A stretch of DNA of 10,376 nt from Candidatus Eiseniibacteriota bacterium. GTDB taxonomy: Bacteria > Joyebacterota > Joyebacteria > Joyebacterales > Joyebacteraceae. Made by a program: the position numbers and the translations under genes. The DNA lies in contig JBDRFG010000093.1 in assembly GCA_043819135.1 (NCBI GenBank), forward strand, positions 1-10,376. The letters are read 5' to 3'. Shown here in pieces: positions 2,405 to 10,376 of this stretch. Every line of letters begins with the position of its first letter. Position 1 is the stretch's first letter. The notes under the pieces are model-generated. The model saw nothing but the letters and a program-made list of their open reading frames with translations. It was not told the DNA's origin and searched no databases.

Positions 2405-3052
2405 ATGACTCACCGCTTGCTGGCCGTGATCGTGGTCGCTTGCCTGCTGGGAGCCTGCTCCTGCGGCGACGGCGCCGCGGACGGCAGTCCACCCGAGCAG
2501 TCGCAGGCCACCGAATTGGGAGAATCGCCCGTTCCAGAGGACGGTGGTGTACCCGAGTCCTCAACGGACTCCGCGGACAGCCTGAGCGCAGCCGACGAAC
2601 TTGCTGGGGGGTCCGCTGCCGTCGACGAGCCGCAGCAGGATCCCGCCGACTCCAAGACGCGACCGAATGACGAATCCGCATCTGAGATCGAATCCCCGCC
2701 GCCTGTGTCTGCCGCATCCTCCAGCGGGCTTCGCGTGCTTCGCGCCTACGTCTGCAAGGGCATCGAGCAGGGGGAGCCGACCGAAGCGGGGAAGAGCTTC
2801 GTGCCGCAGGACGGAGTCCTGAGGCTCTGCTGCTTCAGTGAGATAGCAGGAGCGGCCGGGCCAGACTCGGTCTTCCACATCTGGCGGTGGGGCGACCGCG
2901 AGATGGCTCGCGTGCCCCTCGAGGTCAAGAGCTCGCGCTGGAGGACCTGGAGCACGAAGCGCATCCTCGACGAGTGGCGCGGCGAGTGGCACGTGGACGT
3001 CACGGACCGTGAGGGTGGCGTTCTCACCAGTCTGGAGTTCTCGGTCGAGTAG
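2405..3052 (+). CDS. DUF2914-like domain lipoprotein
   Basis: RBS GAGAGGTG, signal peptide with lipobox (LLGAC), long acidic Pro/Ser-rich linker, C-terminal beta domain with HIW...RWRTWSTKRI...GEWHVDV...G..L..LEF recognised as DUF2914-like. Confidence 0.8.
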   Translation: MTHRLLAVIVVACLLGACSCGDGAADGSPPEQSQATELGESPVPEDGGVPESSTDSADSLSAADELAGGSAAVDEPQQDPADSKTRPNDESASEIESPPPVSAASSSGLRVLRAYVCKGIEQGEPTEAGKSFVPQDGVLRLCCFSEIAGAAGPDSVFHIWRWGDREMARVPLEVKSSRWRTWSTKRILDEWRGEWHVDVTDREGGVLTSLEFSVE

Positions 3053-3099: not shown

Positions 3100-3130
3100 T
3101 TGACACACCCCAACATTCGAACTATATAAT
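3100..3130 (+). promoter_or_regulatory. sigma70-type promoter of the arsR-trxA-tlpA operon
   Basis: TTGACA (3100-3105) with TATATAAT (3123-3130). Spacer is 17 nt to TATATA or 19 nt to TATAAT. AT-rich island in GC-rich DNA. Confidence 0.65.
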
Positions 3131-3148
3131 ATTATCAAGTTTGAATAT
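3126..3148 (+). promoter_or_regulatory. candidate ArsR-family operator
   Basis: Palindrome ATAATATTAT (3126-3135) and imperfect inverted repeat ATATTATCAA-GT-TTGAATAT overlapping the -10/start region, directly upstream of an ArsR gene. The family commonly autoregulates. Confidence 0.45.
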
Positions 3149-3180: not shown

Positions 3181-3534
3181 ATGACCGATACGGGTCACGA
3201 CATACAGAGTGGCAGCGAAGATGGGGCTCCGCCCGAGGCGTTCGAGAAGGCGGCAGACCTGCTGCGCGCGCTGTCTCATCCCGTCCGGCTCAAGATGATC
3301 GAGCTTCTGGGCGGCGGAGAGCTGTGCGTCAAGAGCCTTGAGGAGATCCTCGGGATCTCGCAGTCCTCCGTGTCACAGCATCTGACGCGCCTGAGATACG
3401 CGGGACTGATCGAGTCCGAGCGCAGGGGGCATCTCGTCTGCTATCGTCTGGTCAAGGGCGGAGCTGCGAGGATACTCGAAGCGGCAATGGACGAGTCACA
3501 ACCGAAGGACCGAGAGGAGAGAGGACTGAGATGA
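3181..3534 (+). CDS. ArsR/SmtB family transcriptional regulator
   Basis: LLRALSHPVRLKMIELL, ELCV, SQSSVSQHLTRLRYAGLI, RRGHLVCYRL winged HTH. Stop overlaps the trxA start (ATGA). Confidence 0.93.
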   Translation: MTDTGHDIQSGSEDGAPPEAFEKAADLLRALSHPVRLKMIELLGGGELCVKSLEEILGISQSSVSQHLTRLRYAGLIESERRGHLVCYRLVKGGAARILEAAMDESQPKDREERGLR

Positions 3535-3854
3535 GCAAGACAGTGGCGGGAACCGACGCGAATTTCGAAGCTGAGGTCCTGAAGTCGAACGTGCTGGTGC
3601 TGGTGGATTTCTGGGCGCCGTGGTGCGGGCCTTGCCGTCTGGTGGGTCCGATCCTCGAAGAGCTTGCGGACGAGAACACCGGCAAGCTCAAGGTCGTGAA
3701 GGTGAACGTTGACGAGAACTCCGCGCTGTCACAGCGTTACGAGATCAAGGGCATTCCCACGATGATGTTTTTCAAGGGTGGCGAGCAGGTAGACATGACG
3801 GTTGGGGCCGCCATGAAGGATCGCATTCAGGAGAAGATAGACAATCTACTGTAG
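3531..3854 (+). CDS. trxA: thioredoxin
   Basis: 107 aa, VLVDFWAPWCGPC, KVNVDEN, GIPT cis-Pro loop, no signal peptide. RBS GAGAGGA. Confidence 0.97.
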   Translation: MSKTVAGTDANFEAEVLKSNVLVLVDFWAPWCGPCRLVGPILEELADENTGKLKVVKVNVDENSALSQRYEIKGIPTMMFFKGGEQVDMTVGAAMKDRIQEKIDNLL

Positions 3855-3875: not shown

Positions 3876-4487
3876 ATGATCAGGACTCTGAAGGTCGCGG
3901 CACTCCTGTCTTCGGTAGTGGTTCTCTCCGTCGCTTTCGCCGGGTGCGGTGCGGAGGAGGAGGTCGAGGAGCCGTCAGGTGGGGCCGAGGCGACCACCGA
4001 GGAGACCGGAACCATGCCTGCCCAGCAGGCTTCCAGCGTAGGCATCGAGCCCGGGCAGACACCGCCCGCGTTTGTGCTTCCCGATCTGGACGGGAACGAC
4101 GTTTCTCTCTCCGATTTCGAGGGCAAGGTAATCGTCCTCGACCTGTGGGCGACCTGGTGTCCGCCGTGCAGGAAGGAGATCCCGTTCCTGGTGTCGCTGT
4201 ACGAGGAGTACAAGGACCAGGGACTCGCCGTGGTCGGCGTGGGTCTGGACCAGGGCGGCGCGTCAGTTATCGCGCCGTTCGTCGAGGCCAACAGCGTGAC
4301 CTACACGATCCTTGTCGGGGACCAGGCTATCAGCCAGCAGTACAAGGTGAGCGGCATTCCCATGACTCTGATGATCGACAGAGACGGTCGCGTGGCCTCC
4401 AAGGACGTGGGCTTCGCGCCCACGATGGAGGCGGAAATGCGCGCCCGCGTCGAGGAGCTTCTGAGTCGCCAGGCGACCGAAGCGTAG
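3876..4487 (+). CDS. TlpA/ResA-like thiol-disulfide reductase, lipoprotein
   Basis: RBS GGAGG, lipobox FAGC, acidic linker, PAFVLPDLDG, DLWATWCPPCRKEIP, GIPMTLMIDRDG. Confidence 0.92.
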   Translation: MIRTLKVAALLSSVVVLSVAFAGCGAEEEVEEPSGGAEATTEETGTMPAQQASSVGIEPGQTPPAFVLPDLDGNDVSLSDFEGKVIVLDLWATWCPPCRKEIPFLVSLYEEYKDQGLAVVGVGLDQGGASVIAPFVEANSVTYTILVGDQAISQQYKVSGIPMTLMIDRDGRVASKDVGFAPTMEAEMRARVEELLSRQATEA

Positions 4488-4527
4488 GCGAGCCCGAGCG
4501 TTGGGGCGTCGCGGCGAGGTGACGAGA

Positions 4528-4695
4528 GTGAAGTGGAGCGAGCTGGCACTGCCCGTTGTCTTCGTAGGCCTGTGGCTTCTGCTGCAGCTGGTGGTGCTTC
4601 CCAGACTTGGAGTGTCGACGTGACTCAAGTCATCCTGCGGGCCCGCGGAGCGGGTCGAGGAATCGTCGGGTCACGACGACGATAGCGAGCAGTGA
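4528..4695 (+). CDS. putative small single-TM selenoprotein (55 aa, U32, U-x4-C); not in the ORF track
   Basis: RBS GAGGTGA (4516-4522) and GTG 4528. Translation MKWSELALPVVFVGLWLLLQLVVLPRLGVST-[TGA 4621]-LKSSCGPAERVEESSGHDDDSEQ*. A hairpin follows the TGA, and the read-through stop (4693-4695) overlaps the next ATG as TGATG. Without recoding it is a 31-aa TM peptide ending at 4623. Confidence 0.7.
4633..4661 (+). promoter_or_regulatory. candidate bacterial SECIS element for TGA 4621
   Basis: Upper stem GGCCCGC (4640-4646)/GCGGGUC (4650-4656) closing a GGA loop 23 nt after the UGA. Lower stem UCCU (4633-4636)/AGGA (4658-4661). Confidence 0.55.
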
Positions 4696-5087
4696 TGGAG
4701 CGCCCACTCATCGTTGTAAGGAAGTCGGAGTTCGTGCTCGAGCTCAGCACGTCCCACGGGACGCGTGTCTTCCCGGTGGGCATAGGCTCCAATCCGGACG
4801 GCGCAGACAAGGCGAGAGAGGGCGACTGCAGAACCCCCGAGGGTGAGTTCCGGGTGGTGTCCATCGAGAATTCGAGCGATTGGAAACACGAAGGGGAGCG
4901 GGTCTATGGCCCGCTCTTCCTGCGTCTGGACTGCCCGCCGTGGGAGGGGATCGGCATACATGGCACGAACGAGCCGGAGCTGGTCGGGACGAGATCCAGC
5001 CGCGGATGCATCCGCCTGAGGAACGACGATCTCCTGGCGGTGGCCGACGAGGTGACCGTCGGCACGCGGGTCAGTATCATTCCCTGA
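4695..5087 (+). CDS. L,D-transpeptidase catalytic domain protein (YkuD family)
   Basis: FPVGIG, DKAREGDCRTPEGEF, GIHGTNEPELVGTRSSRGCIRL (catalytic His and Cys), VGTRVSI. Start is ATG 4695 or GTG 4692. No signal peptide. Confidence 0.9.
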   Translation: MERPLIVVRKSEFVLELSTSHGTRVFPVGIGSNPDGADKAREGDCRTPEGEFRVVSIENSSDWKHEGERVYGPLFLRLDCPPWEGIGIHGTNEPELVGTRSSRGCIRLRNDDLLAVADEVTVGTRVSIIP

Positions 5088-9451: not shown

Positions 9452-10376
9452 ATGCTGAAGCGTTCGGCGATCCTAGGGCTTGCCGTGCTGGTCCTGTGTA
9501 TCAGTGCTCTTCCGGCAGCGTCCGCGCAGCGGACGGTGCTGGCGGAGCTTTTCGGGGCGACGTGGTGAGGCTACTGCCCTAACGCCCGTGAGGCGTTGCA
9601 GCAGCTTCAGGCCGAGTTCGGCGATGACGAGCTCGTCTGTCTGTACTATCACGTGAGCGACACATACGAGACGCCTGAGACGTCGGCCCGCGCCAGCTAC
9701 TTTGCCGTCAGCGGCATTCCAGAGACGGACTTCGACGCTGTCAGTGAGGTAGTCGGAGCAGGTTCGACCGTCATCAATACGTTCAGGCCCATAGTGGTGA
9801 GCCGGTTGGCCGACAGCACGCCCATCACTATGAGCACGACCGGCATCATCCGCCCGTCGGCGGACCCGGATCCGAGCTGGGTGACGACGACCTTCCGGGT
9901 CGTCGACACCGTTCCGCCCGGATACGGAACGCTGAGGGCGCAGTTCGCGGTTTACGAGGACATCGGTGACAGCTACCCGTGGACGGTCCGGGACATGCTG
10001 CCCGTGGAGACCATCACCACGCTGTTGGCTCCTGGCGACTCGCTGGTCGTCACGAAGGAGTTCTATGTCGACGGCGACTGGAACTTGTCAGAGCTCCACG
10101 TGGCGATCTTCCTTGAGGACACCACACCGCCGCTCGTCATAAACTCGCAGCTGATGCCGGACCCGTTCGACAGCAAGTTCGTTCATACTGACCGCACTGC
10201 GACCGAGATCGCCTACCTGGGCGAGGCCGTCTACCACACGGTGCTCGAGAACACCGGTGTGATGACCGACACCCTAACGCTCGACATCGCCCACGAGATA
10301 CTCCCGGACGGTCTCGGTGCCTACGACTGGGTGGGTTTCTACTGCGACGACGAAGGCGCCTGCCACTTCGGCCCGT
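9452..10376 (+). CDS. Omp28-related secreted selenoprotein (U39, UGYC motif), 3'-truncated; not in the ORF track
   Basis: RBS GGAGGGAG (9438-9445), ATG 9452, signal peptide MLKRSAILGLAVLVLCISALPAASA, then QRTVLAELFGATW-[TGA 9566]-GYCPNAREALQQL... The frame stays open for 269 codons to the window end and is paralogous to 8224..9363. Confidence 0.92.
9570..9605 (+). promoter_or_regulatory. bacterial SECIS element for TGA 9566
   Basis: Upper stem AACGCC (9581-9586)/GGCGUU (9592-9597) with loop CGUGA 18 nt after the UGA. Lower stems CUGC/GCAG (9574-9577/9598-9601) and GCU/AGC (9570-9572/9603-9605), with a CCU bulge. Confidence 0.75.

Follow-up and report, generated by a model that had tools for sequence, protein, structure and literature searches.

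The window (the whole stretch of 10,376 nucleotides analysed here) carries a gene for a 55-residue single-pass membrane protein with an in-frame UGA codon, which is very likely read as selenocysteine (Sec), with decoding predicted to proceed by SelB through a hairpin downstream of the codon. The gene is a member of a previously predicted, uncharacterised family. With respect to its role, we lean, with some reserve, towards a thioredoxin-coupled redox function of the membrane selenopeptide. The gene order, arsR-trxA-tlpA-[selenopeptide gene]-ykuD-dNK, was kept in 29 of 30 loci from the family of the source genome (family loci; the 30th locus of this comparison ends at a contig edge), and tlpA was directly upstream of the peptide gene in all 30. 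The features of the region were as follows:

3100..3146, plus strand: likely promoter (TTGACA, 19 nt, TATAAT) with two tandem imperfect ATTC-N8-GAAT sites over it, from sequence
3181..3534, plus strand: ArsR/SmtB-family repressor (NF033788 above cut-off, BigR model below cut-off)
3531..3854, plus strand: cytoplasmic thioredoxin TrxA (WCGPC), the proposed reductant (TIGR01068 above cut-off)
3876..4487, plus strand: TlpA/ResA-like thiol-disulfide oxidoreductase (AhpC-TSA and Redoxin; ResA model below cut-off), exported as judged from its N-terminal sequence
4516-4522, plus strand: ribosome-binding site GAGGTGA, from sequence
4528..4695, plus strand: gene of the 55-residue single-pass membrane selenoprotein, with GTG start, predicted Sec32 and Cys37
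4543..4599, plus strand: predicted transmembrane helix (residues 6-24), in which W16 and Q20 are conserved and which ends at Pro25, from hydropathy
4621..4623, plus strand: in-frame TGA, predicted Sec codon, aligned with Cys codons (TGT/TGC) in two genomes
4636..4638, plus strand: Cys37 (Sec+5), likely the resolving cysteine, present in 30/30 family loci
4640..4656, plus strand: SECIS-like hairpin with a 7-bp stem and a GGA loop at 4647-4649, from covariation and RNAalifold
4695..5087, plus strand: YkuD L,D-transpeptidase-domain gene (PF03734), whose start overlaps the read-through stop

The UGA codon and its hairpin

The elements named in the preliminary description, from the ribosome-binding site and GTG start to the helix and the in-frame TGA, were all found again in the sequence. 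The hydrophobic stretch at residues 6-24 had a Kyte-Doolittle 19-mer mean of 2.61. Read-through of the TGA gave U-LKSS-C and a product of 55 residues, 23 of them after Sec (13-84 in homologs), with a stop codon at 4693-4695 that overlaps the ykuD ATG at 4695; when translation is ended at the TGA, a gap of 71 nt is left before ykuD. The peptide gene was present in 29 of 30 family relatives, and TGA followed Thr, with Cys at +5, in 30 of 30 family loci, with synonymous variation downstream of the TGA. The read-through stop overlapped the in-frame ykuD start in 29 of the 30 loci, at ten different tail lengths from 21 to 43 residues. In the one relative without the gene (G024) the first peptide codons were joined to ykuD; at this locus (L222, G024:C1:136655-140038) the peptide start runs into ykuD at a short repeated word, which is either a real deletion or a misassembly.

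The source genome contains the Sec machinery: selA, tRNA-Sec and selD, the last itself with an in-frame TGA, scored above their cut-offs, while selB was represented by its C-terminal half only, below cut-off, at a contig end (G000:C53:3158-4201). Beyond the family, TGA was retained in 11 of 11 distant loci and in 38 of 38 loci fetched from a domain-wide sample (its 44 carriers minus G431, G452, G499, G518, G530 and G576). The terminal stops of the same 38 loci were 15 TGA, 12 TAG and 10 TAA, with one cut off. A metagenome scan with the half preceding the TGA as the query returned 37 loci, of which 36 had TGA, one had TCA and none had TAA or TAG at the site; indeed, neither TAA nor TAG occurred there in any homolog whose DNA was read. 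The TCA (Ser) codon was seen in L113, after position 3051, next to an intact SECIS-like hairpin, and means either that Sec was lost recently or that the read is in error.

Conservation of the UGA is accompanied by its alignment with Cys in homologs. Among the best 150 library proteins, as called from protein records and not from DNA, 53 had Cys at the Sec position (45 of these with a second Cys at +5), 66 ended at Thr, 23 had Trp and three had Gly; the Trp and Gly forms are probably gene calls made under other genetic tables. With the 120 matches listed and the query taken together, 113 of 121 database copies ended at Thr. An alternative genetic code was considered for the source genome and rejected, since TGA terminates both arsR and ykuD and the genome has a tRNA-Trp(CCA). 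We also attempted to follow Sec-Cys switches on a tree of 87 peptides, but only two of its 17 changes were forced by supported branches, and with 36 columns the tree was too weak to count such switches.

The hairpin described earlier at 23 nt after the TGA was recovered at that distance, measured to the start of the GGA loop, with seven base pairs and −16.3 kcal/mol for the folded stretch. It satisfies every term of the consensus model of the bacterial SECIS, which comprises a loop of 3-9 nt with G in the first or second position, a stem of 4-16 bp, a distance of 16-37 nt from the UGA and an energy of at most −7.5 kcal/mol (PMC13188914). In 22 family sequences 95.5% of the cells could pair, as compared with 29-45% in slid controls, and changes on both sides of a pair were observed in nine cells, a value as high as which was reached in none of 500 shuffles; covariation, asked for in the preliminary description, is thus present. 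RNAalifold recovered six of the seven stem pairs. The four inner pairs were invariant and are therefore uninformative on covariation, and the pairs that are most conserved lie within conserved Pro-Ala-Glu-Arg codons, so that the conservation of the hairpin may be driven partly by the protein. A scripted SECIS rule was passed by 97 of 124 TGA loci versus 111 of 367 controls made by shifting and 130 of 372 made by shuffling, and by neither of the Cys-codon loci.

Other candidate thiol and selenium genes were noticed as well. A gene at 9452-10376 of the window (plus strand), cut by the window end, encodes an exported Omp28-related protein with TW-U-GY-C at a TGA (9566-9568) and would be a second likely selenoprotein; it scored 34.6 bits against NF045500 (Omp28-related selenoprotein), for which the cut-off is 200 bits. 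Between 6117 and 9363, genes for a DUF6029 protein and for a CxxC-bearing Omp28-like protein accompany a second TlpA-like gene; all three are syntenic in relatives and may form a further exported thiol-redox cluster. Elsewhere in the source genome, a TlpA-like frame whose active-site position reads G-U-GA-C (G000:C10, TGA near 873, plus strand) is a candidate selenoprotein, and an Omp28-like paralog (G000:C34:39329-39544, plus strand) has two in-frame stops near its CxxC motif.

Distribution of the peptide and its place in earlier catalogues

The occurrence of the peptide follows that of the Sec machinery. Eleven distant carriers (from Planctomycetota, Acidobacteriota, Chloroflexota and Nitrospirota, with one further carrier) all had TGA and selA. 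In a sample of 251 Planctomycetota genomes there were 27 matches, 19 with TGA and two with TGT/TGC, once six weak ones were excluded (L132, which lacks the motif, and L136-L140, with E of at least 8.6e-4). The background of selA in this sample was 187/251; it was found in 18 of the 19 TGA carriers, the remaining one having selB, and neither selA nor selB was above cut-off in the two Cys-codon carriers, one of which had a borderline tRNA-Sec score of 49.9 bits. In the domain-wide sample outside the family, 44 of 370 genomes matched and 43 of these 44 had selA, as compared with 160 of 370 overall (tallied by hand; Fisher p about 2e-16, which is overstated because kin are not independent). The sole carrier lacking selA was a weak match in a frame of 15 codons. 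No relatives of the peptide were found in the viral contigs or plasmids searched.

In a Nitrospirota-type subgroup (L071, L073, L074 and L087-L108) the peptide gene lies directly after rplQ, the hairpin is weak and the basic tail has 13-16 residues and mostly ends in Cys.

The preliminary description had called the gene unannotated, and this was true only in part. The window peptide gave no match in Pfam or NCBIfam, and 33 members compared with NCBIfam did not fall into any family there. However, a published supplement (PMC12013277) lists six sequences labelled 'lovleyi', and it is by this label and these sequences only that the family is known there. A hydrophobic helix bearing W, the motif LP[RK][LM]G[VI]xT-U-[LM]-x3-C and a charged tail are common to all six and to the window peptide by eye; the motif search matched four of the six entries, so that the likeness of all six comes from inspection and not from a computed alignment. 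The window peptide has the helix with W, followed by LP[RK]xGxxT-U-x4-C and a short charged tail, a description which we drew from the six sequences, as no formal definition was found. The label does not appear in the main text of PMC13188914, PMC12013277, PMC9312934, PMC2398784 and PMC5029168. The family was found neither by name nor by motif in Table S1 of PMC12013277, nor in the 119-family table of a 2026 review (PMC13188914), and it is not named in the consulted part of a 2022 review (PMC9312934). Our literature searches returned no paper on the family, and the papers searched gave nothing on its breadth, Sec/Cys split, fusions to thioredoxin, topology or neighbourhood; supplements other than that of PMC12013277 may hold the original prediction.

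Gene callers cut the members at the UGA into fragments of 29-32 residues, and the family is absent from the current catalogue and HMM libraries. Yet the peptide occurs in 43 of the 160 selA-positive genomes sampled outside the lineage (about 27%, probably an undercount, as only 18 candidates per genome were scored), which means that counts of the bacterial selenoproteome miss a common member.

The close relatives of the source genome that bear names are labelled Ca. Eisenbacteria or Ca. Effluviviaceae, which suggests its placement in Ca. Effluviviacota. The latter are described as strict anaerobes of seeps, and selenium is not mentioned in the consulted part of that account (PMC11323493).

Conserved residues, probable membrane topology and the proposed link to thioredoxin

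The U-x4-C pattern, given in the preliminary description, proved to be the commonest form of the family and not its defining feature. All 40 homologs from outside the family had W/Y at −16, L/F at −8, P at −7, G at −4 and T at −1; these homologs were not picked by a motif pattern search, and the script used to locate the site required P and G. The constant part is P-x2-G-x2-T-U. The expected Cys at +5 held throughout the family but in only 23 of the 38 TGA loci outside it; 59 of the 89 distinct homologs had their first Cys at this position, and a Nitrospirota group had a C-terminal Cys at +14. Five of the 89 lack any Cys beyond Sec, so that a resolving Cys can be dispensed with.

An excess of K/R on the C-terminal side of the helix was seen in 87 of the 89 distinct homologs and in 35 of the 40 outside ones. 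According to the positive-inside rule the K/R-rich side stays cytoplasmic, so this surplus points to an N-out, C-in orientation, and the Sec residue probably faces the cytoplasm, a placement in which we have good confidence. In the window peptide itself the tail is acidic past residue 42 and the N-terminus has one Lys, and its charge bias is therefore weaker than that of the family. The AlphaFold2 model of a homolog with Cys (P0275) had one confident helix, residues 3-26 (pLDDT about 95 over residues 1-20), which ran to the proline and was followed by coil. The thioredoxin domain fused to the same protein was modelled with low confidence (pTM 0.30, two rows covering the domain), and the model is uninformative on docking. 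No meaningful match to the peptide was found among solved structures (best E 2.3), and the ESM Atlas yielded a single cluster, without a name, at 0.85, which we treat as a lead only. Five members matched ATP synthase b' weakly (best E 0.019); we put this down to a common helix-proline pattern and not to homology.

The connection to thioredoxin, suspected at first from gene order, is supported by natural fusions. In three loci outside the family the frame continues beyond Sec and runs into a thioredoxin domain; all three come from a single order, in which the in-frame fusion with TGA was found in ten of ten genomes (L212-L221). Three of these ten fusions have no ATG, GTG or TTG in the stretch from the UGA to the domain, and consequently the thioredoxin would need read-through to be made. 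Gene callers would split this membrane-anchored Sec-peptide-thioredoxin fusion at the UGA. Fusions of the Cys type were found in the library proteins P0275 and P0277. The fusion partners are signal-less thioredoxins of the WCGPC type. The two fusion groups were not sisters in the best tree and a single origin was not rejected (p-AU 0.159), and the fusions may thus reflect one event or two. A thioredoxin gene lay within 2.5 kb in nine of the 38 outside loci (three of them the fusions) and in 0.4% of random places in the source genome; it was absent in the other 29.

Other neighbours within 2.5 kb of the 38 outside loci were the FmdB zinc ribbon (12), ArsR (9), YgaP-like proteins (8) and DUF302 (3). 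At least one of five recurrent neighbours was present in 25 of the 38 loci, as compared with 1.2% of random places in the source genome, and none in the other 13; the neighbour profiles were built from the same 38 loci and the background is that of one genome. A rhodanese/metallo-beta-lactamase with a pyridine nucleotide-disulphide oxidoreductase was found at two loci, and TauE, peroxiredoxin, OsmC, CMD and rubrerythrin were seen too, as were housekeeping genes such as rplQ and secG.

With respect to regulation, the −10 box that precedes arsR is overlapped by two tandem sites, each with one mismatch to ATTC-N8-GAAT, which are the probable operator of the ArsR-family repressor. The promoter itself had been missed by our promoter scan, which allows spacers of 16-18 nt only, as its spacer is 19 nt. 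At least one such site was present in 11 of 16 relatives and both in six, counts taken without a shuffle control, and boxes of this kind may also serve further ArsR subfamilies. For SqrR and YgaV this motif has been described (PMC9774250), and the polysulfide links of SqrR are reduced by a thioredoxin (PMC10044876). The window ArsR scored 63.2 bits against the BigR model (cut-off 155), the C-terminal Cys of SqrR/BigR was absent by eye, and none of eight neighbouring ArsR proteins reached the BigR cut-off; judged by score and Cys pattern, the window ArsR is thus not a BigR-type repressor with a sensing Cys pair.

Proposed mechanism, alternative readings and known systems

The thioredoxin-coupled redox mechanism that we lean towards may be put in five steps. 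First, SelB would use the hairpin to have Sec inserted at the UGA, for which the comparative data argue strongly. Second, the helix would insert N-out/C-in and break at P-[RK]-x-G, with Sec seven residues past the proline on a flexible tail, as suggested by the charge bias, the thioredoxin fusions and a model. Third, a substrate, most likely a persulfide/polysulfide or a peroxide, would oxidise Sec, which could then form a selenosulfide with Cys(+5), or with a more distal Cys where present, in keeping with known selenoprotein chemistry. Fourth, a WCGPC thioredoxin would reduce Sec, as the fusions and the neighbourhood suggest. Finally, an ArsR-family sensor would lift repression of the operon under thiol or sulfur stress, which is likely but the weakest step of the scheme. 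A small membrane-anchored selenoprotein with its own SECIS, as first proposed, is supported.

It is possible, although we think it unlikely, that the peptide acts at the membrane in the binding or transfer of a soft metal or metalloid (As, Hg, Cu or Zn) via U-x4-C and is kept reduced by thioredoxin. The ArsR/SmtB neighbours at 9 of 38 loci would fit this reading, as would the RND, cation-efflux, ZnuA and low-molecular-weight phosphatase (arsenate-reductase-like) genes next to some loci and the Cys-rich tails of some Cys-type homologs; however, the second Cys shifts or is missing, no metal-specific gene (merA, arsB or copA, for example) was among the neighbour ORFs scanned (a selection), and sulfur and peroxide genes are at least equally common nearby. 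We give somewhat less credence to a redox-switch subunit of a larger membrane protein (such as YgaP/DUF2892 or an efflux pump), in which a W16-Q20-L24 face would dock the partner and Sec would regulate or reduce it. This would explain why the residues constant in the 40 outside homologs exceed the needs of a plain anchor, and YgaP-like neighbours (8/38) and RND genes (8/95 loci) are in agreement with it, but most loci do not share any one membrane partner and the source genome has no YgaP-like match.

A peptide with an outward tail that serves the exported TlpA as substrate or partner, or one that, as the minimal electron shuttle named in the preliminary description, carries electrons from TrxA to TlpA and stands in for DsbD/CcdA, appears improbable. 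The position of tlpA directly upstream in every family locus speaks for this reading. Nevertheless, the source genome has its own DsbD_TM/CcdA gene above the Pfam cut-off (C8:78760-79323), no ccdA or ykuD was found near the 38 outside loci, where the only tlpA matches are the thioredoxin genes themselves, and the fused thioredoxins carry no signal. A single helix with Sec and Cys both on one side gives no route across the membrane. A regulatory role, in which selenium-dependent read-through would tune translation of the coupled downstream gene, is slightly more improbable still: the stop-start overlap of 29 of the 30 family loci and a thioredoxin output dependent on read-through in the fusions would be accounted for, but the downstream genes vary by lineage, the whole peptide is kept in Cys-codon versions, and stop-start overlaps are common in operons. 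Termination at the TGA as a normal stop would yield a membrane peptide of 31 residues, such as an arrest peptide, as the database copies ending at Thr would have it. This reading is very improbable in view of the missing TAA/TAG, the Cys homologs, the co-occurrence with selA, the coding pattern kept after the TGA and the fusions lacking an internal start. Homologs ending in TAA or TAG, an unconserved sequence after the TGA and a genome devoid of Sec machinery, which the preliminary description had set against its own proposal, were not encountered.

The natural thioredoxin fusions and Sec/Cys pairs offer a direct test of the contribution of selenium in a minimal membrane redox peptide of synthesisable length. 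More tentatively, and as a speculation that we would hold less firmly than the redox mechanism itself, the family may be one of the most widespread bacterial selenoproteins, carried by about a quarter of the Sec-using genomes sampled and by many unrelated families, and among the smallest selenoenzymes: a single-helix, fold-less bacterial counterpart of SelS/SelK which would use thioredoxin to strip persulfides/polysulfides (or peroxides) on the inner side of the membrane in ArsR-controlled sulfur-stress operons. Selenoprotein K is grouped with SelS as the same kind of membrane selenoprotein. SelS (SELENOS/VIMP) is a single-pass protein with a short outer N-terminus and a disordered cytoplasmic tail, in which a Sec-Cys selenosulfide is proposed to act as a reductase (PMC3628699). 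SelS is 189 residues long, and its penultimate Sec follows the Cys by 14 positions, whereas in the window peptide Sec comes seven residues after the helix, is neither at nor next to the C-terminus, and precedes the Cys. The peptide would at most work like SelS, and we do not claim homology. As with CcdA/DsbD (PF02683), it is a membrane protein encoded with TrxA and TlpA, but it has one helix instead of several and no match to PF02683, that is, no multi-helix DsbD_TM domain. The homologous loci resemble the ygaVP-type operons of SqrR/BigR/YgaV in their YgaP, rhodanese, TauE and thioredoxin neighbours, and the window resembles SqrR/BigR operons in its ArsR-family repressor and possibly in the ATTC-N8-GAAT-like sites over the promoter.
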